From an uncultured Lactobacillales bacterium (GTDB lineage: Bacteria; Pseudomonadota; Alphaproteobacteria; CAAHEQ01; UBA3637), in the NCBI GenBank assembly GCA_964414185.1, contig CAYPVK010000003.1, positions 37,085-101,084 on the forward strand: DNA of 64,000 nt. The letters run 5' to 3'. The notes beneath the pieces are model-generated. The model was given only the letters and a program-made list of their open reading frames with translations, did not search any database and was not told where the DNA came from. Positions 11,357 through 56,781 of this stretch are shown here, piece by piece (the first letter of the stretch is position 1; every line of letters starts with the position of its first letter). A program made the position numbers and the translations under genes.

Positions 11357-11577
11357 ATTTTATAATAATTTTAAAAATAAGACAACTGAAAAATCATTAA
11401 AATAAGGTTATTTTTGAATTTATTCAATTAAATCACTAAGCGGACATGGGAAAATGTTGCTTGTATTAATTGGTAAATTACTGTTCAATATTCGATTGAA
11501 AGTTTTTTTAATATCGGTTTGGTGCGTGCATATCGCTTTTATGCAGATTGTGTGTAGGTATTTATTTCGGAACGTAT

Positions 11578-11610
11578 AAAAAACCTGTCACAGGACAGGT
11601 TGTTTTTTTA
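11578..11610 (-). terminator. Hairpin plus T-run downstream of tRNA-Asn (copy 1)
   Basis: Palindrome CCTGTCacaGGACAGG flanked by A-runs and T-runs. An identical copy follows tRNA-Asn copy 2. Confidence 0.5.
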
Positions 11611-11685
11611 TGGCTCCGGCGGTAGGGCTCGAACCTACGACCGATCGGTTAACAGCCGATTGCTCTACCACTGAGCTACGCCGGA
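11611..11685 (-). tRNA. tRNA-Asn (GTT)
   Basis: Manual fold: acceptor stem UCCGGCG/CGCCGGA, anticodon loop cuGUUaa, TpsiC arm GGTTCGAGCCC, encoded CCA. Confidence 0.9.
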
Positions 11686-12046
11686 TCCGTAAAAATACAT
11701 TTATCAAATTTTAAAATAAAATGCAAGTATTTTTTATCTAAATAATAATTTTTTTATTCGGTGGAGATAAAATTCATGTAACCTGCAGGGAAAAAAAGGG
11801 AAGGAGTGTGTCAAATTAATTAAACTGTTTTCTGAAGAAGAGTAGAGATAAAGGAGTGATGTAAAGAAAGGACCGTTTCTTTGAGACATGATTTAAAAAA
11901 AAGGCTATATGCTCTGTTTCAAGATTTAATCTTAATTTTTTAGCGGGTTATTAATTTTTCCTTGAACTTTTATTCCTTTTTTTTATGATGCATTCTATCG
12001 GTCGTTTATTTGAAACAAGCGAGTCAAAAGAAAGGGGTATGAAAGC

Positions 12047-13786
12047 ATGGGAAAAATCCAAGCAGGTCGGACGATGATGGAGATGTTGGGAGTGTTATCG
12101 ATAATAGGAGTGCTATCGATAGGAGCGTTATTGGGATATAATTATGCGATAACGAAATATAAATCGAACACGACGATAAACGATTTAAACCGGTTTGTAG
12201 TGGTTGTAACGCAACAAATGGTGATGGGACGCGATAGATTGGATTTGTCGGAAGCGAATAATAAAACGACGTTAAATTATCCGGCAAGTGCGTATTATTT
12301 GGAGGACGACAGATATTTCGAAATTGCATTGGCCGAAGTGCCCCCCAAAGTGTGCCGACAAATCCTCCGCGAAAATTTAAAAGAACCTCTTGTAATAAAA
12401 GTCAACGACTATGCGTATGTAGGAGATACGGGGATATGTGAAGCGGATGATGAAGGGAGTCCGGTAGAGATGGTGTTTCAATATGTATCGGATTTGGACA
12501 GCGATGAATTGCCGTACGGGACATGTAAAGTCGATGCCGATTGTGTTGGGGATTGTGTCAGATGTAATGAAGACGGTTTGTGTGTCTCTACTTGTATAGG
12601 CAACGAACGTTGTGCACAAGATACCTTAACGGGACAAATGTTATGCTGTCCGAAAGATAAACGCGAAGGACCCTATTGTTGTGAAAAGAAGGTCAACGGC
12701 CGTTGTTGCAACAAGTATGACCAATGTTGCCCCTGGTACCGCCCCTTAATCGATAAAAACGGCAACTGTTATGCTTGTGACTATAAAAATCGTGTTGACG
12801 TAACGGGGGTTCAAGATAACTGTAATGTGTGCTCAAATCGCGAGTTGGACGGAAATTGGTGCCGCGTCAAGTGCACTGCGGACAAACCTTTGCGCGATGC
12901 TTATGGTGTCTGCCGCTCTTGCGATGATGAAGCATTTATTTACCAAGGTTCACCGATAAATTCTAAATGCAGTCAAATTTGTCCGAATCGACACTCAAGT
13001 GGTGAAAAAAATTATTATTGCGGCTTAAAGTGTGGTGAGGGCATTTATGCAGATATGCCATTGACTGATTCGTCCGGGGTTTGCCATTCATGTGAGGAAA
13101 CAAGGAATATCAATGTAACCAATGTTCATGAAAATTGCGCAGTATGCCCGCATCGGGAAGTAATTGGTAATTTATGCGCATTGCCATGCCCTGATCCGGA
13201 TAAACCGATGCCCGGAAGCGACGGTAACTGTTATGCGTGTGATGATCCTAAACCGTTAACGGTCGCACAATATTCTTGTTCAGTTTGTCCCAATCGTATT
13301 AGTTTTAACTACCGCTGTATTTTTAAGTGTGGTGAAGGAATAAATGCAAATAAACCTTTGCTCGGGGCCAGTGGTGACTGTTATACGTGCGATGAGCCCA
13401 AAGCGGTTGATGTAAGGCATTCATCCCCAAAATGTGAAGAAATATGTCCCAATCGTGAAAATCTGAATGGTTTTTGTATCATAAACGACTGTGATGATAA
13501 TCAAATGAAGGGCGAAGATGGCAAATGTTATACGTGCGACACGCCCAATGATGCCCGTATAAAAACTCAGATGTGCGATAAATGTCCCAATCGGGTAAAG
13601 TGGGGTGATTATTGCATATTACCGTGTGATGAAGGTATTTATGAAGATATGCCTCTTCCCGATCGATACGGCAACTGTTATGCCTGTGATTACCCATCCC
13701 GGATTGATGTATATGGCGCAACCGATGTTTGCCAAAAAATTTGTCCGGACAGACAACTTGACGAGCACTATTGTGTTTTAAAATGA
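12047..13786 (+). CDS. Cysteine-rich tandem-repeat protein with a prepilin-like (class III signal) N-terminus
   Basis: The N-terminus (QAG|RTMMEMLGVLSIIGVLSIGALL) resembles the type IV pilin methylation/cleavage motif. About 7 diverged repeats of roughly 55 aa follow, each with a GNCYACD...CxxCPNR...CxxxC pattern. Confidence 0.8.
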   Translation: MGKIQAGRTMMEMLGVLSIIGVLSIGALLGYNYAITKYKSNTTINDLNRFVVVVTQQMVMGRDRLDLSEANNKTTLNYPASAYYLEDDRYFEIALAEVPPKVCRQILRENLKEPLVIKVNDYAYVGDTGICEADDEGSPVEMVFQYVSDLDSDELPYGTCKVDADCVGDCVRCNEDGLCVSTCIGNERCAQDTLTGQMLCCPKDKREGPYCCEKKVNGRCCNKYDQCCPWYRPLIDKNGNCYACDYKNRVDVTGVQDNCNVCSNRELDGNWCRVKCTADKPLRDAYGVCRSCDDEAFIYQGSPINSKCSQICPNRHSSGEKNYYCGLKCGEGIYADMPLTDSSGVCHSCEETRNINVTNVHENCAVCPHREVIGNLCALPCPDPDKPMPGSDGNCYACDDPKPLTVAQYSCSVCPNRISFNYRCIFKCGEGINANKPLLGASGDCYTCDEPKAVDVRHSSPKCEEICPNRENLNGFCIINDCDDNQMKGEDGKCYTCDTPNDARIKTQMCDKCPNRVKWGDYCILPCDEGIYEDMPLPDRYGNCYACDYPSRIDVYGATDVCQKICPDRQLDEHYCVLK

Positions 13787-13853: not shown

Positions 13854-14078
13854 GAATATTAATCGTAAGATTTTGGTTATTTTTTATAAAAGATAATAAA
13901 AACAAGTTATTTGTGATCTTTTGATTGTAAAAGGTAAGATTTTCATTCTTGTATTTGTAAAACTTTTTCTGGGCATTTTAAAGTTTTTGATGTGATTAAA
14001 TAAACAAGCTGATTCTTGTCAATTGCATTGGTGAGGAAAGGATATCAGCCATAATAAAACGTAAAAAGACCCGCCGCA

Positions 14079-14114
14079 AGGACAGGTTGTTTTTTTATGG
14101 CTCCGGCGGTAGGG
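14079..14114 (-). repeat. Partial third copy of the tRNA-Asn 3' end plus its downstream flank
   Basis: 36 bp identical to the 3' terminus of both tRNA-Asn genes together with their shared downstream flank. Identity ends inside the T-arm. Confidence 0.7.
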
Positions 14115-14261
14115 TTGTAAATTCCCATTTTTATGGATATAAAAACTGGCCCCTTTCCGCCTCGCTCACTGCGTTCGTTCGTCTGACGAACCTTAAACGG
14201 CTCTCGCCCTTTCATACGGAACACATAAAAAAAACCTGTCACAGGACAGGTTGTTTTTTTA

Positions 14262-14336
14262 TGGCTCCGGCGGTAGGGCTCGAACCTACGACCGATCGGT
14301 TAACAGCCGATTGCTCTACCACTGAGCTACGCCGGA
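14262..14336 (-). tRNA. tRNA-Asn (GTT), copy 2
   Basis: Identical to copy 1, including the roughly 33-bp downstream hairpin. Confidence 0.9.
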
Positions 14337-14384: not shown

Positions 14385-14459
14385 TGGAGGCCGATGCCGG
14401 AATCGAACCGACATAAAAGGATTTGCAGTCCTCTGCATAAGCCATTCTGCCAATCGGCC
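14385..14459 (-). tRNA. tRNA-Cys (GCA)
   Basis: Manual fold: acceptor GGCCGAU/AUCGGCC, discriminator U73, anticodon loop cuGCAaa, T-arm GGTTCGATTCC, encoded CCA. Confidence 0.85.
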
Positions 14460-16523: not shown

Positions 16524-17249
16524 TTATGATTTTAAAACGCGTGCCAAAGTCAAATATGAAACTTTATTCGCACCGGCTTTTTTCAAGGCTTTTGCGCATT
16601 CATTCAAAGTTGCACCCGATGTCATAACGTCATCAATCAATAAAACGTGTTTGCCGACAATTTTAAGAGCATTTTTGACTTGGAATGCTTTTGATACATT
16701 TTGTTTACGTTCTGCCTTTTTCATATGTCCTTGGCTTTGGGTATGTTTTACCCTTAACAACACGCCGGTGGCAAAAGGTTTTTTTATACGGTCGGACAAA
16801 GCTTTTGCAAGCAGAGCAGATTGATTGTATTTTCGTTTCATCAATCTGAAACGATGTAACGGGACGGGAATCAAAATATCCGCTTCTTCAAATAAATCGC
16901 CGCCGGCCTGATAAAGCAGGTTTGTCAACAAAGTTGTGAGTTCAATATGGTCGGAATGTTTAAACGGCAAAATCAATTGTCTTGAAAAATCGTCATATTT
17001 AAAAGCGGCACGAGCTTTGTGGAAAACTTGTTTCTTGGTTAAGCACGCACCGCAAAATAATTCATCGGCAATTTGAAATTCAAAAGGTCGTCCGCATTTT
17101 TCACAATAAGGTTTTGAGATAAATCGGATGCGAGAAAAACATTCATTGCATAAGGTATCGGTATTTTGAACGCGTGTTTTGCAAATCGGGCATTGAGGCG
17201 GAAAAATAAAATTCAATAAACCTTTAAAAGCATCCGAGAAAAAAGGCAT
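16524..17249 (-). CDS. comF: ComF-family phosphoribosyltransferase-domain protein
   Basis: N-terminal Zn-finger with paired CxxC motifs and a PRTase motif VLLIDDVMTSGATL. Confidence 0.8.
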   Translation of the reverse strand: MPFFSDAFKGLLNFIFPPQCPICKTRVQNTDTLCNECFSRIRFISKPYCEKCGRPFEFQIADELFCGACLTKKQVFHKARAAFKYDDFSRQLILPFKHSDHIELTTLLTNLLYQAGGDLFEEADILIPVPLHRFRLMKRKYNQSALLAKALSDRIKKPFATGVLLRVKHTQSQGHMKKAERKQNVSKAFQVKNALKIVGKHVLLIDDVMTSGATLNECAKALKKAGANKVSYLTLARVLKS

Positions 17250-26027: not shown

Positions 26028-27104
26028 ATGAAACGTTTTTTGTTTTTTTCTTGTATAATTTTTGTTTTTGTATGCTTTTATTTTGCGGGCGGTATTATTT
26101 ACCAATATATGTATGACAGGTTGATGCCGCGCAAAGCATGCCTGCACATTTGGCCGAATGATAAAAATAATCGTATATTTAAAACTGATGTATTTTTTAA
26201 TCGTTTGAAAGAAGAATTTTTAAAACGCGGATATGATTTGTCGACTCAAGATATAAATCCGATATACGAAAGCGATATAGTCCTGTATGTCAATGCTTGG
26301 GCACCTTTGCCGCCCGAAAACCATAAAGACAAATCGTATGTGTGGTTTTTGGAAACGCCGCCGGTGATACATTCGTTATACAAAAAGGAAAAACACCATT
26401 TATTTAAGAAAATTTTCACTTATGATAAAGATTTGGTTGATAACGAAAAGTATCATTATATGCAGCTGACTTACTCTTTCGATCCTTGGGAAGACGTGGA
26501 TTTGAAACAAAAAACGGTTTTGGCGATGCAAGTTGCGAGAAATCATTATTATTCCAATCGTTTTTTATATCATGAACGGCGTAACTTGGTTAAATGGTTT
26601 GTTGAAAACCATCCGGAAGATTTTGAATTTTACGGAGAATATTGGGGCCCATACAAAAGCAAGATTAATCCCGAATCTCGAGCAGATTTTGACAGATGCA
26701 ACAAAGGTTATACCCCAAATAAAAAAGATACGGTAAAAAAAGCTCGGTTTGTTTTTGCTTATGAAAATTGTTTGTCTGACAATTATGTTTCCGAAAAAAT
26801 ATGGGATGTCATGAATGCCGGTTCCGTTCCGATTTATTTAGGAGCCGACAGCATTGAAACATATGTGCCGAAAGAATGCTTTATTAATAAAAAAGATTTT
26901 GACACTTATAAAAAATTATACGATTATATAAAAAATATGTCGGATGAAAGATATTTGCAATATATTGATTGCATTAAAAATTTCATTACGCATCCAAAGA
27001 AAAAAAATGAAATAACGGATATAAATTATATGGTTGATAATATGGTTAATGTTATTTTTGAAAATGAAAGTTTTGCGGATAAAGTTATAAATTATTTCAG
27101 ATAA
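26028..27104 (+). CDS. GT10-family (alpha-1,3-fucosyltransferase-like) glycosyltransferase
   Basis: The C-terminal motif FVFAYENCLSDNYVSEKIWDVMNAGSVPIYLG matches the FucT signature FxxxFENSxxxxYxTEKxxxAxxxxxVPVxxG. An N-terminal TM anchor is present. Confidence 0.6.
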   Translation: MKRFLFFSCIIFVFVCFYFAGGIIYQYMYDRLMPRKACLHIWPNDKNNRIFKTDVFFNRLKEEFLKRGYDLSTQDINPIYESDIVLYVNAWAPLPPENHKDKSYVWFLETPPVIHSLYKKEKHHLFKKIFTYDKDLVDNEKYHYMQLTYSFDPWEDVDLKQKTVLAMQVARNHYYSNRFLYHERRNLVKWFVENHPEDFEFYGEYWGPYKSKINPESRADFDRCNKGYTPNKKDTVKKARFVFAYENCLSDNYVSEKIWDVMNAGSVPIYLGADSIETYVPKECFINKKDFDTYKKLYDYIKNMSDERYLQYIDCIKNFITHPKKKNEITDINYMVDNMVNVIFENESFADKVINYFR

Positions 27105-28674: not shown

Positions 28675-28736
28675 AGTTTATCACACTGATTAGTTAATGG
28701 TGTGTTAATTGAAATACGTTAATTTTATTAAATTAT

Positions 28737-29012
28737 TTACTTTCCTGTGGTAAGATTTTTAATGTCTTTGAGGACATTTGATACATCTTTGTATTCTTTA
28801 AACCTGTCAATAAGAAGGTCCAGAACAACTTCTTTTTCGTCGCAGCCTGCAAGCTTAGCAACTTTTAAAGTTGTTTCGGGGCTTGGAGTGCTCCTTTTTT
28901 GAATAAAATTTGAAATGGAAGCTCCGCTAATTCCGACAACCTTGGCTACTTGATTGTTTGAAGATATGTTGTGTTTCAGCTTGGCCAAATTTACATAAGT
29001 TTCAAAATCCAT
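28737..29012 (-). CDS. XRE-family HTH transcriptional regulator (phage repressor-like)
   Basis: HTH QVAKVVGISGASISNFIQKRS. It is divergent from the replication gene. Confidence 0.7.
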   Translation of the reverse strand: MDFETYVNLAKLKHNISSNNQVAKVVGISGASISNFIQKRSTPSPETTLKVAKLAGCDEKEVVLDLLIDRFKEYKDVSNVLKDIKNLTTGK

Positions 29013-29161
29013 GTTTATCCATCCTTTCTGTTGTAAAGGTGTGATAAACTTTTTTATTATGTGTATAGAAAGTGAGAGGCGACATATTTACGAAAAATGC
29101 TTAACAACTTTTTTAATTATACCATAAAAATTTTTGTTGACAACTGTTTTTTTATTGGCTA

Positions 29162-29950
29162 ATGGTGTATATGTACACTGAAAGACTAACAGTAAAACGA
29201 GAAAAGCTTATGATGCCGCAGTTTACGCAAATACAATTACGAGTTTTAAAAGACAGGCGAGTTTCACCCCGTATGCGCGATGTTATGGGATTATTGCAAT
29301 CAATGATGAATGAACAGGGCGTATGTTGGCCATCGTTCAATTATATAGCCGATTCGTTGGGAATTTCGCGGCGAATGGTTATCAATATAATCAACCAATT
29401 GGTTGAATTGAATTATGTCATCAAAATGAAGCGCACAATCGAGGGGACGAACGAACAAACAAGCAATTATTATGCGATTAATAACAACTATGACGCAGGG
29501 TTGGCATTGCGCAAAAAGCGGGGTGGAAAACAGGCGCACAAGCTTGTGAATAAATCCGATTTCGGGGTGAAAAAAATTTCACCACCCCCTAGTGAAAAAA
29601 ATTTCACCCCGAATCAAGTAGATATTTTTTTAACTAAATGCGCGCATACACGTGAGCGCGCGGGCGCGCGTGTACGCGCGAACGGGACTTTGCAAGTTGG
29701 ATTTAATTGTTTTGACCAGCTTGTATGGCGAGAGGTCGGAAACGTACTTGAAGAGCAGGGATTTAGTCTTCAAGGTCTTAAAATTGAAAAGAAACAAGAC
29801 AAACATTACGTTATCCGGCCTTTCGAGATAAAAAACGAGGCGGCAAAGGACATCATAACTGCGGCGAATTTGGCTTTGCAGGAAATGAAAGGTCGAAAAA
29901 TCGGGAAAATAACTATACCGCCGGAAATATCATTGCAGGAGGCGATTTAA
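29162..29950 (+). CDS. Phage/plasmid-type replication initiator with a winged HTH (HTH_36-like)
   Basis: N-terminal motif CWPSFNYIADSLGISRRMVINIINQLVELNYV. The gene contains iteron-like repeats and a GC-rich inverted repeat. Confidence 0.6.
   Translation: MVYMYTERLTVKREKLMMPQFTQIQLRVLKDRRVSPRMRDVMGLLQSMMNEQGVCWPSFNYIADSLGISRRMVINIINQLVELNYVIKMKRTIEGTNEQTSNYYAINNNYDAGLALRKKRGGKQAHKLVNKSDFGVKKISPPPSEKNFTPNQVDIFLTKCAHTRERAGARVRANGTLQVGFNCFDQLVWREVGNVLEEQGFSLQGLKIEKKQDKHYVIRPFEIKNEAAKDIITAANLALQEMKGRKIGKITIPPEISLQEAI
29563..29611 (+). repeat. Two copies of the hairpin-forming 16-mer GTGAAAAAAATTTCAC inside the rep gene (iteron-like)
   Basis: Copies lie at 29567-29582 and 29592-29607. They are enclosed by the outer inverted repeat CGGGGTGAAA...TTTCACCCCG. 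Confidence 0.5.
29640..29680 (+). repeat. GC-rich (about 80% GC) inverted repeat inside the rep gene
   Basis: CGCGCATACACG...CGTGTACGCGCG with 1 mismatch and a 16-bp GC spacer. The composition is strongly atypical for this genome. Confidence 0.4.
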
Positions 29951-30120
29951 TGGCAAAAAGAAAGTATTATTTTACGGTTACTATGGCTCCAGCGGGTCAT
30001 TTTGTAGGCGATTTTGAAACGCTTGAAGCGGCTATGGGCTACTTGAGAAAAAACTTTAATATGAACTTAACGGGCATGGCAGAAATGTTTACCATTGTCA
30101 AAAAGGAATTCAAACAATGA
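29950..30120 (+). CDS. Small hypothetical protein (56 aa)
   Basis: TAATG overlap with the rep stop upstream and ATGA overlap with the next ORF downstream, both consistent with translational coupling. Confidence 0.4.
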   Translation: MAKRKYYFTVTMAPAGHFVGDFETLEAAMGYLRKNFNMNLTGMAEMFTIVKKEFKQ

Positions 30121-30461
30121 AAGAAGATTTTGCGCGGATGAAGTGCCCGGCGTGTGGAGCGGAAACGTTTATACGGATAAATAAAAACCGAATTTTATAT
30201 ACATATTGCCCTATGGGGCATCATTTGAAGTTGACGGCACAAGAAAGCCGCCAAGCAATCCCGGTTCTTACCACGGGCAAGCCATGGAACAATGGCATTT
30301 TATTTTTGTATCCACTAACGAAAGGAAAGCAAGACAATGGAACAAACAATGATGAACGAGTTGAAATTGGACGACGGGGAAATAGCGAATGTACCACCAA
30401 TCAACGAGATGGAAACACAAGAGCAGATGGAACAAATACCACCGATTGGTGGAACGTTTGA
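30117..30461 (+). CDS. Zn-ribbon protein
   Basis: CPACG...YCPMGH near the N-terminus. Coupled to the upstream ORF. Confidence 0.5.
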   Translation: MKEDFARMKCPACGAETFIRINKNRILYTYCPMGHHLKLTAQESRQAIPVLTTGKPWNNGILFLYPLTKGKQDNGTNNDERVEIGRRGNSECTTNQRDGNTRADGTNTTDWWNV

Positions 30462-30876
30462 GGCAGGTTTAAACGATATTATAACGCCTGATGATTTTTA
30501 TAATGGATTTAAAAGTGTTTTTGCTTTTGCGGGAGAATATACATCGACACAAAGCTTGCCAATTCAAGCACATGAAGAGCAGGGCGCGCGGCGCACGTCG
30601 GACAAACTGTATGAAATGGCTTTAAAATATCCTTTCTTGCGTTTTATGATTGATACAAAAACGTCATGGTTAGCAGACGTCAGTTTGATTAGTTTATTCG
30701 TTTATGGCAAAACAAATGCCGTGTTAGAAGAAAAAACAGGTTACGGATTGAATAAAATAATTTTTGGGAGGTTGGGCAAATGGTTACCGAAGCGAAAAGG
30801 GTCGGGATTTTTGGCGCGTCTGGGTCTGGGAAAACGACCAAAGCAAGAACAATCATCAGAAGTACAAAAAGATTAA
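30337..30876 (+). CDS. Hypothetical protein (overlapping frame)
   Basis: It covers the 318-bp gap before the ATPase gene and contains one hydrophobic segment. It overlaps neighbouring genes in another frame. Confidence 0.3.
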   Translation: MEQTMMNELKLDDGEIANVPPINEMETQEQMEQIPPIGGTFEAGLNDIITPDDFYNGFKSVFAFAGEYTSTQSLPIQAHEEQGARRTSDKLYEMALKYPFLRFMIDTKTSWLADVSLISLFVYGKTNAVLEEKTGYGLNKIIFGRLGKWLPKRKGSGFLARLGLGKRPKQEQSSEVQKD

Positions 30877-38021: not shown

Positions 38022-39104
38022 TTAAATACCTGATTTACGGCGATTACAATCTTTGCACAACATTTGGCAATTATCGAGTACGGTTTTCCCGCCGCTATGC
38101 CAAGGTGTAATATGGTCCCCTTCCATTTGATTGATTCCAAATGAACGGTTGCATTTCGGGCAAACGCCCTTTTGGCGTTCATAAGCTTCACGCTTCATAT
38201 TCTGGGTAAAGGCGCGAATATTCAGATGCTTTTCTTCACCGGATAAAACATAAGCATAAATACCGGATTTTTTCGTTACATCATCATCTTGCATAAGGGT
38301 CGTTATCCGTTTTTCCATTTCAACATTATTGACGGGGTTATCTTTAAACTGATTGTATAAATTCCCCCAGTTAATGCCTTTCATTTCTTTGCGATAGTTT
38401 GGAAAAATTGTTTTGACCCAATTAATCACATTTTGAAAATGTAACCATAATTCATTTGCATTCGGATCATGTTGATGCTTTGCCATATAGGATTGAATTT
38501 GCTCTTCACTTACCCAATCGATAGCCGTTTTAAGATATTCTTGCCGAATAGTCGCCCCTTTCACATAATCTTTGGCAATATTGTATGCAGGGCAATTTGT
38601 TTTGCTGAAATGTCGTTTTGCGTCCGTCAACCATTCGCCCGTATACATGGCATTTAATAATTCTTGATCGGTTAATTCTTCACCCGCAATATTAATTGTT
38701 CGGAACCATTCCAATTTTTCTTTATCCGTTCCTTCACAAATATAAATCATCAATTCATACTTTAATATCCGTTCCTTATCGGCGTTAGTTAAATTAAAAA
38801 AATAATTTCCGTTATATGAAAAATTCCCTTTTGCATATTCGCAAATGCTGACGGTTCTTTGTTGCCCGTCCAATAATTCGAATGTTTCGTCTTCATTTTT
38901 ACACCAATACATAACATTCAACGGAAAATCCTTTATGACGGTATCAATAACGGCTTCGCGTTGTTTTTCATTATACACGAATTCCCGTTGATATTTAGAG
39001 CGGATATTTAATCGGCCGTTGTATCCGATAACCCCCTCCTCTTCGGTGTTGGTGTACCCTTCAATTAAATCCTTGATTAAAATTTTGTTTAATTCTATTT
39101 TCAT
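38022..39104 (-). CDS. DUF262 (ParB-like nuclease, DGQQR) plus HNH endonuclease protein
   Basis: LDGQQRTVSI motif near the N-terminus. C-terminal HNH CPKCNRSF...GDHITPWHSGGKTVLDNCQMLCKDCNRRK. Confidence 0.7.
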   Translation of the reverse strand: MKIELNKILIKDLIEGYTNTEEEGVIGYNGRLNIRSKYQREFVYNEKQREAVIDTVIKDFPLNVMYWCKNEDETFELLDGQQRTVSICEYAKGNFSYNGNYFFNLTNADKERILKYELMIYICEGTDKEKLEWFRTINIAGEELTDQELLNAMYTGEWLTDAKRHFSKTNCPAYNIAKDYVKGATIRQEYLKTAIDWVSEEQIQSYMAKHQHDPNANELWLHFQNVINWVKTIFPNYRKEMKGINWGNLYNQFKDNPVNNVEMEKRITTLMQDDDVTKKSGIYAYVLSGEEKHLNIRAFTQNMKREAYERQKGVCPKCNRSFGINQMEGDHITPWHSGGKTVLDNCQMLCKDCNRRKSGI

Positions 39105-39284
39105 TTCTTTTTCCTGATCAGAATACGTCTGTAAGTTTCTTTCCCATTAATTAATCCATTCATTGTCCCGCCTGCTCTGCCTGTTACGCTCAATGGATGA
39201 AAACAATCTATGGGTTCCGTTTCCTGCGAATTGTGATTCTGGCGTAAGTAATTTTCCCATTTATTTTTCCTTCCGCATTTTTTA

Positions 39285-40109
39285 TCATCCCCGGAATCGC
39301 CATTGTACAAGGATACGAAAGTACGGTTGAATTCTCTCTCTGGTGAAAACTAGGTCTTTTCCATCTTCACCTTTGCGAAAACAAACAATTTCAAATTGAT
39401 CGGGATTATACTTATCAAGAAAAGTTATCGGTACACCCATAACGCCGTCATAATCACACGGAATATCGGAAACTTTGCTGACTTCAATGGCGTCATAGTT
39501 ATCATATTTTGGATATGCTTCGGGGGAATAATTACGATATAAAATCATTTCTTCATAGCGTTTTTTGTGTTCCAAGTTGGTGAACCAACAAACATTACCC
39601 ATTAAACGCCATTTTTGCCCCCGCTCATCTATTTGAAAACCTGTCATCTTTTTCTCATAATATTCGGGAACCATAAATTTTTTAACTTTTTGATAGCCCA
39701 ACCATAACTTATTTTCTTTAATCAAGGGAAAAATTTCTTTATATGTAATGGCATTTTGATTGCCAATTACAACGAATTTTTTGCCATATTCCACAAGTTG
39801 GGCAATATATTCGCGGAAAAGGGAAAATGGCGGATTTGTACAAACAATATCGGCTTGTTTCAACAGTTCGATACATTCTATGCTTCTGAAATCGCCGTTG
39901 CCTTTTAAACGTGTTAAGGCATTCTTTTTGTTCGCAAGCAATATTTTGATATCACTTAAATCAAAAGCCCCGTCCGAATTTTTGTCGGTAACTTCCGTAA
40001 TAATAATTTTATGCGCTTGTCGGGTGGTTTTGTTTTCTTTCGGTTCAAAATCGAAAAGGGATAATTCCGTATCGGCAATCGGGGAACCGTCATAACAAGT
40101 GGCAATCAA
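39285..40109 (-). CDS. N6-adenine DNA methyltransferase (NPPF motif), 3' portion in the main frame
   Basis: Motif IV DIVCTNPPF. The ORF as given starts at a TTG. The frame stays open upstream as far as a TGA at 40368-40370. Confidence 0.7.
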   Translation of the reverse strand: MIATCYDGSPIADTELSLFDFEPKENKTTRQAHKIIITEVTDKNSDGAFDLSDIKILLANKKNALTRLKGNGDFRSIECIELLKQADIVCTNPPFSLFREYIAQLVEYGKKFVVIGNQNAITYKEIFPLIKENKLWLGYQKVKKFMVPEYYEKKMTGFQIDERGQKWRLMGNVCWFTNLEHKKRYEEMILYRNYSPEAYPKYDNYDAIEVSKVSDIPCDYDGVMGVPITFLDKYNPDQFEIVCFRKGEDGKDLVFTRERIQPYFRILVQWRFRG

Positions 40110-54567: not shown

Positions 54568-56781
54568 TTAATCCAATTGCATTGTGCCGATTGTTTCCAA
54601 ATCGTCTTCTTCATTGACAAAATCTTCAGGCATCGGACCAACCGGTTTAATTTTTGACAATTCTTTGTACTGCGGTATTTTGGAATACAGCGGTGTTTGT
54701 CCGACAATCGGACGATATAATTTGCCGGCATATAAAACAATTTGTTTTGTATTCGGCATATTTAGGAAAGTTGAACCGCCGATAACCGTATCATCTTTTG
54801 TTTTTATTTTAAGTTTATGTTCATTCCAAAAAGTTGCCCCCATCCCTTTGAAATTTCCCGGCAAAAGTGAACTCGAAAGATCCAATTTACAACGGCTTTT
54901 ATCATAGCTGCGAACGACCTTTGTCAATGTTTCGATACCCTTTGTCAACTTATTACGTGTTTCGGGATTATTGTTGCGTTTGATTATTTTTGCGGCTACC
55001 GAACTCATAATCGTATCGGCCGTTTCTTGATTATATTTTGCCGAAATTTGATGCCAATCTTGGACACAGATAAAAAATGAATTTCCCTTTGAACGTCCGA
55101 AAACAATACCGTCGGCAATACTTTTTAATGATGGCATATGATGAAATTCATCTAAAATGAAAGTCATCGGGAAAGGCCCCATTCCGTCTTCATTCGGACC
55201 GCTTTTCATCAAAGCATTCATAGACATGTTGATGAATAAGCTGTTGACAAGCATTGTCGAACCCAAATCCGACAAAGGAACCGACAAATAAATCGTAATG
55301 GGGCGATATGTGCCGTCAATATCTTGAATGCCGCGTAATTGATCATAATTAATGTCATTTAATGATGTACGCAACCGAACGGCGGCATTTTTAAAAATAT
55401 TAATGCCCGAAAGTGCCATTGATACGACAGAACCGCGTTGTTTATCCGGCAATGCTTCAACTTGAGACAATTCCAGTAATGTCCGCCGTCCGTATCCGTA
55501 ATAAGCCGTTTCCAAAACAGCTTCTTCCAAAATCATCTTCCACGCATCCGTGTTTAAAGCTGTGACATCTTGTTCCAAGCGCCTTTGTTTCAATTGTTCG
55601 TTGTATTTCATTTGCGTATTGTTTAAAACATCCAACAACATCGCAAAACATGCATCGGAGCCCCGCCAATTTTTCGGAATAATGCCCCATTTACCGATAG
55701 GCAAATAATTTTCTTTGGTAATGCGTCGCGCACGAGCATTTTTAAGGGCTTCTTGCACTTCGGGAAAATCGCGCATTGTTTCATAATAGGAAATCAGTAC
55801 AACATAATCTTCTTCATCCAAAGCATCTTGTTCAATTTTATATAAAAAGTAATCATTGGCTTTTGCCTGATCGACTTTCCCGCACAACCACCCCGTTAAG
55901 CCGGTTAAACACCCGCGCCCTGCCTTTGTCCAATACGGATCGGTTCCCGTGGGGCCGTCCGGGATTAAAAAGTCAATCAATTCATCAATGTAACCTTCCC
56001 TGCCGCCTTGGATTGATGGCAGATTGTCCCCGCCCAACGGATTCCAAGACGGCCAACGGATACCCTTTGACGGGTCGTCAAGTGCACCCCAATTCAATTT
56101 AAAAACGGGGCCTAATGTCGCACGATAACCGCTGGTAGCGGCAGCTATTTCACCTTTTGGATCATGAATAATCAAACAGGTATCTTGAGCTTCAAAGATT
56201 GCGGGAATAATACATCCCACTGTTTTTCCTGTACCGGGCGCGCCGATACAAAAGACCGAACGGCAATCGGGCAACTTCATTTTCGAACCGTTCATCATGC
56301 CTAAAAACAATCCTTTTCCGGTCAACAGGCCGAATTCTTTTAAATCTTTTTTTGTCGCCACACGTCCGTCGCCGAATGTTCGAGGTGCCAAATAGTACGG
56401 ATTTTTAACCGGAATCATCAATTCATACCAAATGAATAAACCGATCGGAATAATCGGCAGTTTCCAAGCAAAAAAACTGCCCCAAGTCGTATGGCGCGGC
56501 TCATTCGTAACCCATTGGGTCAAAGATGTCCAATATGTGGTGAACGGCAAAAAGACATTGCCCGAAAAAACAGCTTTAAAATAAGTACCGTACATGCCGC
56601 CCAATTCGTTCCAATAACCTTTTATTGCCGCATATGTAAACGGTATCCAAAACAATAATAAAATCCATAATAAAACGATACCCAATAAAGCACGCCACCA
56701 CCAAAATTTCAATGCCTTGCGCGTTGATTCGGATTCTTCTTTAAACCTGAAAATTTTAAAATGGTCAAATATCATGATCAA
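54568..56781 (-). CDS. virD4: Type IV secretion coupling protein (VirD4/TraG family)
   Basis: N-terminal TM helices, Walker A GAPGTGKTVG, TraG/TrwB-like length and motifs. Confidence 0.8.
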   Translation of the reverse strand: MIMIFDHFKIFRFKEESESTRKALKFWWWRALLGIVLLWILLLFWIPFTYAAIKGYWNELGGMYGTYFKAVFSGNVFLPFTTYWTSLTQWVTNEPRHTTWGSFFAWKLPIIPIGLFIWYELMIPVKNPYYLAPRTFGDGRVATKKDLKEFGLLTGKGLFLGMMNGSKMKLPDCRSVFCIGAPGTGKTVGCIIPAIFEAQDTCLIIHDPKGEIAAATSGYRATLGPVFKLNWGALDDPSKGIRWPSWNPLGGDNLPSIQGGREGYIDELIDFLIPDGPTGTDPYWTKAGRGCLTGLTGWLCGKVDQAKANDYFLYKIEQDALDEEDYVVLISYYETMRDFPEVQEALKNARARRITKENYLPIGKWGIIPKNWRGSDACFAMLLDVLNNTQMKYNEQLKQRRLEQDVTALNTDAWKMILEEAVLETAYYGYGRRTLLELSQVEALPDKQRGSVVSMALSGINIFKNAAVRLRTSLNDINYDQLRGIQDIDGTYRPITIYLSVPLSDLGSTMLVNSLFINMSMNALMKSGPNEDGMGPFPMTFILDEFHHMPSLKSIADGIVFGRSKGNSFFICVQDWHQISAKYNQETADTIMSSVAAKIIKRNNNPETRNKLTKGIETLTKVVRSYDKSRCKLDLSSSLLPGNFKGMGATFWNEHKLKIKTKDDTVIGGSTFLNMPNTKQIVLYAGKLYRPIVGQTPLYSKIPQYKELSKIKPVGPMPEDFVNEEDDLETIGTMQLD

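Follow-up and report, generated by a model that had tools for sequence, protein, structure and literature searches.

Type IV pili are central to colonization, DNA exchange and phage entry. One answer proposed to the question of how so simple a filament acquires many specificities is the grafting of modules onto pilins. Among type IVb pili, TcpB starts assembly of the filament, and a tip location is known or, in the case of CofB, proposed for subunits of this kind (PMC6048534, PMC5207764). The PilV tips of IncI plasmids and PAPI-1-type islands set recipient specificity (PMC9045228, PMC5297154). The locus described here lies in a 64,000-nucleotide stretch of contig CAYPVK010000003.1 from an uncultured alphaproteobacterium (referred to as the window, at its full length). 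A gene at 12047-13786 on the forward strand of the window encodes a pilus-subunit-like protein in which seven disulfide-bonded repeats, of a type not described before, form a long rod. The family to which this protein belongs applies module grafting at a scale not described before, and current domain models barely detect it.

The open reading frame (ORF) starts with ATG and encodes 579 amino acids (aa). A first-pass annotation, made from the letters of the DNA, had proposed this ORF, and its start codon and the ribosome-binding site AAAGGGG bear it out. The N-terminus was also quoted correctly as MGKIQAG|RTMMEMLGVLSIIGVLSIGAL (the vertical bar marks the predicted cleavage site) and is the sole such motif in the 64-kb window. 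The product contains 58 Cys (10.0%), which is fewer than the "at least 60" first given, together with 54 Asp and 41 Asn. In the sense used for modular pilins (PMC8179133), it consists of a pilin module (aa 8-157), a linker (aa 158-227) and an extra module (aa 228-579). The extra module is indeed made of seven units, but these measure 45-54 aa in structural register and not about 55 aa as had been estimated. Sixteen Cys lie outside the repeats, with C103 and C131 in the pilin head and 14 in the linker, and every module holds an even number of them. The Cys columns of the linker are conserved among relatives, and AlphaFold predicts the linker as short β-hairpins. Its CC doublets are spaced CC-x9-CC-x7-CC-x5-CC, which recalls the granulin ladder, and no Pfam family, Granulin included, matches the linker. 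No record of an identical protein was found. The promoter-like site upstream of the gene (Table 1) is weak because such sites are no more numerous in the region than in shuffled sequence.

The N-terminus has a short hydrophilic leader that ends in Gly and is followed by a hydrophobic stretch with Glu at +5, as in type IV pilins. The hydropathy maximum falls over aa 8-30, and about 21 mostly hydrophobic residues follow the cleavage site. Among 279 distinct relatives, Gly at -1 is present in all (279/279, 100%), Arg at +1 in 98%, Ser at +2 and Met at +3 in 96% each, and Glu or Gln at -3 in 95%, which makes [EQ]-x-G|R-S-M-V-E-M-L-G a consensus conserved at 95-100%. Glu at +5 was demanded by the search pattern with which this set was collected; the same residue (E12) is also invariant in alignments built without that pattern. 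A profile of the N-terminal 157 aa matches solved pilins, with E = 4.9e-4 for 8tob and E = 9.4e-4 for TcpA (8uhf), and further matches in the Protein Data Bank (PDB) include several PilA and PilE entries. In these alignments the mature pilin N-terminus falls on S(+2)...E(+5), with S(+2) as pilin residue 2. Since the solved mature pilins align in register, the cleavage site is placed at G7|R8. Small relatives score 17-18 bits with the curated N-terminal models. Features of this type define a class III signal and a pilin fold (PMC8179133). Judged from its conservation and its register with solved pilins, the N-terminal sequence is a genuine class III (prepilin) signal whose type is unusual and lineage-specific. 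The claim of such a signal in the first-pass annotation thus stands on the near-invariant motif, the in-register pilin matches and the predicted pilin fold. Arg at +1, which had been flagged as an oddity, is present but is no anomaly, being a lineage-wide rule in 98% of the relatives. In place of the label "pseudopilin", "type IVb modular (minor) pilin" is the better term.

An AlphaFold2 model made from a 44-sequence alignment has a mean predicted local distance difference test (pLDDT) score of 86.3. Its pilin module comprises a 50-residue helix (aa 10-59) and a β-sheet (aa 79-147), with pLDDT of mostly about 87-93 and lower values at the N-terminus and at aa 121-140. The best PDB matches found by Foldseek are the type IVb pilins CofA (9iuf) and TcpA (8uhf, 3hrv, 1oqv), with a top probability of 1.0. 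Comparison of the N-domain family of the window protein with PilS/bundlin-type major pilins that carry the same Gly-Arg-Ser-Met (GRSM) leader gave a probability of 99.9% in hhalign (E = 1.8e-31, 126 columns), and this alignment extends into the head up to the first conserved Cys. The window protein itself has no match above threshold to Pfam PilS (PF08805) or Bundlin (PF05307); P0134, a relative with the same leader, passes Pfam PilS at 42.8 bits against a cut-off of 22 (homologs are given P numbers and related loci L numbers). The PDB profile matches and the hhalign result together establish sequence homology to experimentally established pilins. At the level of sequence, the pilin head is homologous to the PilS/bundlin-type major pilins bearing the same leader.

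The repeat units follow the pattern C0-P-x-D-K-P-L-x-D-x2-G-x-C1-Y-x-C2-D ... C3-x2/3-C4-P-N-R ... C5-x-L-x, in a register that starts at the Cys preceding P-x-D-K-P-L. Each of the seven units of 45-54 aa has six invariant Cys, and C3-x3-C4 replaces C3-x2-C4 in three of the seven. The protein ends at a unit boundary, as do most relatives, which close with C-V-L-K, C-V-L-K-E or C-V-L-N-E. The Cys pattern is not due to chance, because the repeats recur at the DNA level (spacings of 147-150 nt and 297 nt), a hidden Markov model (HMM) built from the units detects them in 117 relatives at 1-16 copies each, and 524 of 536 full-length distinct units across the family keep all six Cys. The invariant Cys framework described in the first-pass annotation is therefore genuine. 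Its remark that the repeat family could not be recognized also holds, given that neither Pfam, PDB profiles nor Foldseek matched the repeat to a known Cys-rich fold. The repeat has no match in Pfam (E up to 10) or NCBIfam; the best PDB profile match, to an Fe-S protein (formate dehydrogenase β), has E = 0.035, and the best Foldseek match of the repeat model has E = 3.2. The folds of EGF, TNFR, furin-like, granulin and LDL-receptor A domains were considered and rejected, as none gave a profile or fold match. The six-Cys repeat is thus a candidate new extracellular fold.

Similar metagenome-assembled genomes (MAGs) also encode proteins of 100-840 aa in which this repeat follows an ordinary Sec signal peptide and no pilin module is present. 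Examples are P0067, P0091, P0094, P0102, P0103, P0109, P0121, P0128, P0130 and P0132, of which P0132 also has a C-terminal membrane anchor. These proteins mark the repeat as an independent extracytoplasmic module. C3 and C5 are jointly lost in at least four separate protein groups, and C2 and C4 are jointly lost in one, which points to disulfides C3-C5, C2-C4 and, by elimination, C0-C1. These losses argue for three disulfides per repeat unit. A DsbA gene stands beside a small family member in L063. The extracytoplasmic, disulfide-bonded array that had been suggested for the repeats agrees with the Sec signals of relatives, the even Cys counts, the paired losses and the presence of DsbA in the lineage. 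It could instead be supposed that the CxxC...CxxC pairs bind zinc in zinc-ribbon or treble-clef-like beads and form no disulfides. The predicted structure puts C1-x2-C2 in a β-hairpin, while C3-x2/3-C4 opens a short helix, a placement which is the treble-clef arrangement, and a weak sub-threshold match of P0093 to the zinc-ribbon family DUF1451 (E = 0.029) can be added to that with formate dehydrogenase β. However, the paired losses of C3/C5 and C2/C4 would split the supposed metal site, three of the seven units have C3-x3-C4, and an extracytoplasmic location, even Cys numbers per module and DsbA in the lineage all speak for disulfides. Zinc binding is therefore highly improbable and was rejected on the paired Cys losses.

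Evidence that the leader belongs to a pilus system comes from a scan of JGI metagenomes with the conserved N-terminal consensus alone, which found a GRSM-leader pilin inside complete type IVb clusters. One of these is on a 76-kb human-gut contig (L145), whose genes are listed in Table 1. Gene order is identical in L155 and, from the 479-aa gene onward, in L148, and parts of the cluster are found in L147, L146 and L133. In L061, a named GTDB Alphaproteobacteria MAG, a distance of about 6.7 kb separates genes for secretin, TcpQ and PilO from a modular family member of 352 aa; this PilN-type secretin was missed with E. coli GspD as query and found with the L145 proteins. The L145 ATPase is 35-38% identical to ATPases of type IVb clusters in Methylorubrum, Bosea and E. 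coli plasmids, and the syntenic Bosea plasmid cluster has an annotated PilV tip adhesin and no A24 peptidase listed. GRSM-leader pilins inside type IVb clusters indicate that this leader type is used by a real type IVb system in the lineage, which further supports the class III signal proposed at first pass. As a side observation, the PilS-like gene upstream of the major pilin in L145 encodes a PilS/bundlin-like protein of 219 aa with a hydrophobic N-terminus that lacks G|RSM.E.

With moderate confidence, the gene can be read as encoding a modular type IV pilin from the PilS/bundlin/TcpA-like (type IVb) lineage that would present an alternative binding head, probably at the pilus tip. This reading builds on the observed anatomy and conservation of the signal, the pilin fold and homology, the extracytoplasmic repeat and the link between leader and type IVb clusters, along with the module shuffling described below. 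We infer the following route from prepilin to tip adhesin. The hydrophobic α1-N segment would insert the prepilin into the inner membrane, and a prepilin peptidase would cut the 7-residue leader after Gly7, leaving a mature protein that starts at Arg8 and has Glu12 at +5. The C-terminal 420 residues would form an elongated periplasmic array with about 28 disulfides, seven in the linker and three in each repeat (putatively C0-C1, C2-C4 and C3-C5), and one more in the pilin head would bring the total to about 29. The pilin module would then enter a type IVb machine, for which a secretin, a PilO-type protein, a PilQ-type ATPase, a PilR-type platform and a PilS-type major pilin with the same leader are needed. 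The bulky cargo makes a position at the pilus tip most likely, where the subunit would be one among many alternative heads for binding ligands.

Several observations weigh against this reading. The leader scores only 11.1 bits with Pfam N_methyl (PF07963; cut-off 21.2) and 11.2 bits with TIGR02532 (cut-off 16.3), in each case at the right position. The published census of modular pilins reportedly rested on an InterPro entry made from these two models, and it would therefore have missed the family. The +1 residue of type IV pilins is Phe, or Met/Leu in type IVb, and is N-methylated; here it is Arg, for which, to our knowledge, there is no precedent among characterized pilins. No pilus genes are present in the 64-kb window, and no type IVb cluster was seen in the window or in the loci of the closest relatives. 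The contigs that do carry a cluster have 46-49% GC, against 40% here. Motif scans and phmmer, with two A24 peptidases of E. coli as queries (one from a type IVb cluster), detected no A24 prepilin peptidase in the window or in about 1.9 Mb of related loci, a search that does not cover whole genomes. Nothing turned up in 1.37 Mb when Walker-A and A24 motifs were scanned for and E. coli GspD/E/F/G/K/O served as phmmer queries. No neighbor is conserved for about 110 family genes in 81 sequences (80 GTDB loci and the window), and the contexts of P0003, P0001, P0006, P0134, P0228 and P0233 are each a different housekeeping neighborhood. Individual MAGs carry at least 9-12 family genes, some of them in tandem arrays of 3-4, and this number of paralogs per genome exceeds the minor pilins of any known pilus.

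Points of this kind can be accommodated if the pilin-like N-terminus, cleaved or not, is a mere inner-membrane anchor, so that the Cys rod stays in the periplasm or envelope in a structural or sensory role and is never polymerized. In its favor, this gene and most of its paralogs have no machinery gene beside them, the sequences searched yielded no peptidase, and the paralogs far outnumber known minor pilins. Since the repeat also functions behind plain Sec signals and, in P0132, together with a C-terminal membrane anchor, it does not need a pilus. Against this, an ordinary signal-anchor would not require that G(-1), R(+1), S(+2), M(+3) and E(+5) stay invariant across 95-100% of 279 relatives, nor would it need a head homologous to the major pilins of pilus clusters, and such an anchor role is considered improbable.

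Another explanation retains the tip adhesin but directs it at bacterial partners. The protein would then be a PilV analog on a conjugative type IVb thin pilus that selects recipients, with the paralogs replacing the shufflon. The cluster type (TcpQ/PilL-like, PilN-type secretin, PilO2, ATPase, platform, PilS and PilT-like) is that of IncI and PAPI-1-type systems, and both the resemblance of the L145 ATPase to plasmid versions (35-38% identity) and the PilV of the Bosea cluster are in keeping with it. The window also encodes a VirD4/TraG-type coupling protein (54571-56781, reverse strand; Pfam T4SS-DNA_transf, TrwB_AAD_bind, TraG-D_C), which hints at a conjugative element in the genome. However, no relaxase or other conjugation genes lie beside the clusters in L145 and L155, the family genes are dispersed among housekeeping genes, and the window protein has no match to the NCBIfam PilV model (E up to 10) and only E = 0.1 to Bosea PilV in BLASTP. 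A role in recipient selection is accordingly rated as unlikely.

The family is large. A search with the full-length protein returned 134 homologs, none informatively named, and the few with a name at all read "MAG: hypothetical protein [Alphaproteobacteria bacterium]". In GTDB species representatives the leader pattern occurs at least 599 times, and 584 of these sites were confirmed. The 80 GTDB loci kept for analysis are all from uncultured Alphaproteobacteria MAGs and, where the source is named, from ruminant or rabbit gut. Among 1.84 billion cluster representatives, the N-domain profile has 6,521 matches with E up to 1e-3, and 5,304 of these reach E up to 1e-10. This puts the family at over 5,300 clusters of 50% identity. 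Mature lengths run from 125 to 980 residues (median 448 aa), and Cys makes up about 8%. The repeat described here occurs in 58 of 127 new proteins among the 150 best matches listed; in the other 69, Pfam recognizes essentially nothing, apart from one match to the FGE-sulfatase domain. Other C-terminal modules with the pattern W-x2-A-x3-C-x2-L-G/N-K were seen at L061:10001-11056, from L074:11208 onward and from L078:9973 onward. From their sequence they look like a C-type-lectin or DUF1566-like fold, to which FGE-sulfatase is related. The lectin-like pattern and the FGE-sulfatase match would fit a ligand-binding cargo.

No canonical G-F-T-L-I-E pilin was found in about 1.35 Mb around family genes. 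Plasmid records and IMG/VR gave no match, and in phage records only the N-terminal 48 aa matched, in two unannotated fecal contigs. In the homolog genes P0001 and P0006 (L091, L092, L088-L090), the called start is the internal Met of M-(V)-E-M-L-G, and the ORFs extend upstream through ...NNQEGR[ST]M. Mis-called starts of this kind cut the leader from database entries, and the family is further overlooked for this reason. A search of the literature on pili in the lineage yielded nothing usable. Uncultured gut Alphaproteobacteria probably display thousands of unannotated proteins of this kind on a type IVb pilus.

The history of the gene can be read from its relatives. Comparison with the L091 copy, 88.6% identical, indicates purifying selection, with a dN/dS of 0.08 for the pilin module and of 0.21 for the repeats. 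P0006/P0007 share 89-90% identity with the window protein in the pilin module and 39-50% in the repeats, while for P0003/P0004 the values are 49% and 74-85%. For P0006 alone they are 89% and 41-50%. Pilin and repeat modules have clearly been exchanged between relatives, and their histories are discordant. DNA homology to L091:2586-4310 (88.6%) covers 12052-13776 of the window, a coding stretch that opens where the leader ends and closes shortly ahead of the stop codon, and homology to L088:5979-6522 (82.9%) covers the pilin module only. The conserved stretch coding for the leader and α1-N may serve as a recombination site between paralogs.

The L091 homolog stands in a different neighborhood, between surA and rpmE, whereas the neighbors in the window are accC, a DUF4823 lipoprotein gene, tRNA genes, tolC, a DUF2497 gene, a ComF-like gene and cell-wall genes. 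A 114-nt direct repeat (11572-11685 and 14223-14336; 98% identical) that contains tRNA-Asn and a terminator brackets the gene, with a partial third copy at 14056-14114. A distant relative (L022) has a single tRNA-Asn followed by tRNA-Cys and tolC, and no such gene beside the tRNA. The tRNA duplication and remnant fit insertion or copying of a gene-sized cassette. The gene may be a tRNA-integrated island, but the tRNA-Asn-bracketed locus has no integrase. It can also be observed that a Cys- and Asn-rich gene here stands between copies of tRNA-Asn and near tRNA-Cys.

Table 1. Coordinates of the pilin-like gene and its surroundings, of the type IVb cluster in L145, and of a prophage-like element in the window (positions refer to the window unless L145 is given)
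Feature	Position	Strand	Remarks
Promoter-like site TTGAAC-16-TATGAT	11962..11989	+	consensus scan; 58 nt 5' of start codon
Ribosome-binding site AAAGGGG	12031..12037	+	read from sequence; 9 nt 5' of ATG 12047
Whole ORF, modular pilin-like protein	12047..13786	+	579 aa, stop codon included
Leader peptide MGKIQAG (aa 1-7)	12047..12067	+	ends at predicted cleavage-site Gly
Hydrophobic α1-N segment RTMMEMLGVLSIIGVLSIGAL (aa 8-28)	12068..12130	+	Arg +1, Glu +5
Pilin module (aa 8-157)	12068..12517	+	α1 helix aa 10-59, β-sheet head, conserved Cys103/Cys131 pair
Cys-rich linker (aa 158-227)	12518..12727	+	14 Cys, four CC doublets among them
Repeat unit 1 (aa 228-275)	12728..12871	+	
Repeat unit 2 (aa 276-328)	12872..13030	+	
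Repeat unit 3 (aa 329-380)	13031..13186	+	mostly covered by double-repeat model, pLDDT 88.4
Repeat unit 4 (aa 381-427)	13187..13327	+	double-repeat model
Repeat unit 5 (aa 428-481)	13328..13489	+	
Repeat unit 6 (aa 482-526)	13490..13624	+	
Repeat unit 7 (aa 527-579)	13625..13783	+	ends ...YCVLK
tRNA-Asn(GTT), left copy of 114-nt direct repeat	11611..11685	-	
tRNA-Asn 3'-end remnant, 17 nt	14098..14114	-	adjoins variant terminator hairpin 14069-14087
tRNA-Asn(GTT), right copy of direct repeat	14262..14336	-	then tRNA-Cys (14385-14459), tolC
TcpQ-domain lipoprotein	L145 1380-2141		
Secretin	L145 2125-3729		
PAP_PilO	L145 3754-5028		
479-aa protein	L145 5006-6442		no Pfam match
T2SSE ATPase	L145 6450-8129		
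T2SSF platform	L145 8144-9265		
PilS-like protein	L145 9204-9860		
GRSM-leader pilin, 223 aa	L145 9986-10654		PilS 60.6 bits, Bundlin 50 bits, cut-offs about 22
PilT-like ATPase	L145 10762-11757		
Repressor-like HTH	28740-29012	-	PHROGs
Replication initiator	29162-29947		PHROGs
217-aa P-loop packaging ATPase	30780-31430		PHROGs
Endolysin	34506-35003		PHROGs

Other parts of the window hold several further features. A small prophage-like element, recognized with PHROGs, occupies approximately 28700-36700 near tRNA-Gln (37202-37275). Its 288-aa ORF (31672-32535) and several small membrane ORFs gave no match, and its size and content recall tailless membrane-containing (corticovirus-like) phages. 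A ComF-family protein with a double zinc ribbon and a phosphoribosyltransferase domain is encoded at 16527-17249 (reverse strand), and DprA is found in a related contig (L081:3853-4989). These genes are weak evidence for a DNA-uptake filament because competence-associated genes are widespread. A GT10-family (fucosyltransferase) gene (26028-27101, forward strand) lies inside a tmk - holB - tatD housekeeping operon; GT10-family enzymes make Lewis-type host-mimicking glycans in Helicobacter. At 38022-40109 (reverse strand), an EcoRI-like adenine methyltransferase (39288-40109) adjoins a protein of 360 aa whose translation shows an HNH-type motif at the end, possibly a restriction-modification or defense pair.

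More speculatively, uncultured gut Alphaproteobacteria may possess a private "pilin code", in which Arg takes the place of N-methyl-Phe or Met at +1. The leader [EQ]-x-G|R-S-M-V-E-M-L-G, read by a diverged or as yet unrecognized peptidase, would deliver at least ten interchangeable giant tip subunits per genome, shuffled as cassettes, to one type IVb pilus. If so, surface recognition would be combinatorial and would work with dispersed whole genes in place of a shufflon or silent cassettes. The tip library would be built of disulfide-rich folds without known relatives, the six-Cys "CPNR" bead among them. The invariant Arg at +1 raises a testable question about the specificity of the prepilin peptidase and about the contact between the N-terminus and Glu5 in filament assembly. 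Since the hosts are common uncultured bacteria of the human and livestock gut, these proteins are plausible determinants of attachment to mucus, host cells or other bacteria.

The protein can be compared with several described systems. The modular pilins PilB and PilC of Streptococcus sanguinis likewise combine a class III pilin module, a linker and a bulky presented module (PMC8179133), and the leader of PilB has 7 aa, as here. Unlike in PilB/PilC, the extra module here is an undescribed disulfide-rich repeat and not a vWA or lectin domain, Arg is at +1, the host is a diderm alphaproteobacterium, and there are many paralogs per genome. PilV of the IncI1/IncI2 thin pili (R64, TP114) is encoded in a gene cluster of similar type (PMC9045228, PMC5430464), in which TcpQ/PilL, PilN secretin, PilO, ATPase, platform and PilS occur as they do beside the GRSM-leader pilins. 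PilV also joins a constant pilin N-terminus to alternative C-terminal binding parts, with a diversity made by recombination. Its variants, however, arise from shufflon inversion in one gene, whereas full-length genes with shuffled modules are dispersed here. PilV has no Cys-rich repeats and no detectable sequence similarity to the window protein, and its leaders are canonical, e.g. G|LTLIE in Bosea PilV.

CofB of enterotoxigenic E. coli and TcpB of Vibrio cholerae similarly consist of a pilin domain followed by β-rich C-terminal domains (PMC6048534, PMC5207764). The pilin module of the window protein is structurally nearest to CofA and TcpA, the partner major pilins of these two systems. In contrast to the many dispersed genes here, CofB and TcpB are single and encoded within their operons, with no known family expansion, and their C-terminal domains are β-repeat and β-sandwich folds and not disulfide beads. 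With PilS/bundlin (BfpA; PF08805, PF05307) the window protein shares the α1 helix, the β-sheet head and the first head-disulfide Cys, but its head is shorter (about 100 aa after α1-N) and is followed by a 420-aa extension. Lineage-specific expansions to tens of dispersed pilin-like genes per genome occur in Planctomycetes, Verrucomicrobia and Lentisphaerae (prepilin N-terminus with DUF1559 / H-X9-DG) and in Elusimicrobia; those keep a canonical G|F-T-L-I-E leader and have other C-terminal domains. As a modular type IVb pilin, the best-supported reading, the window protein would work like PilV, CofB/TcpB or PilB, and it is not a sequence member of those families.

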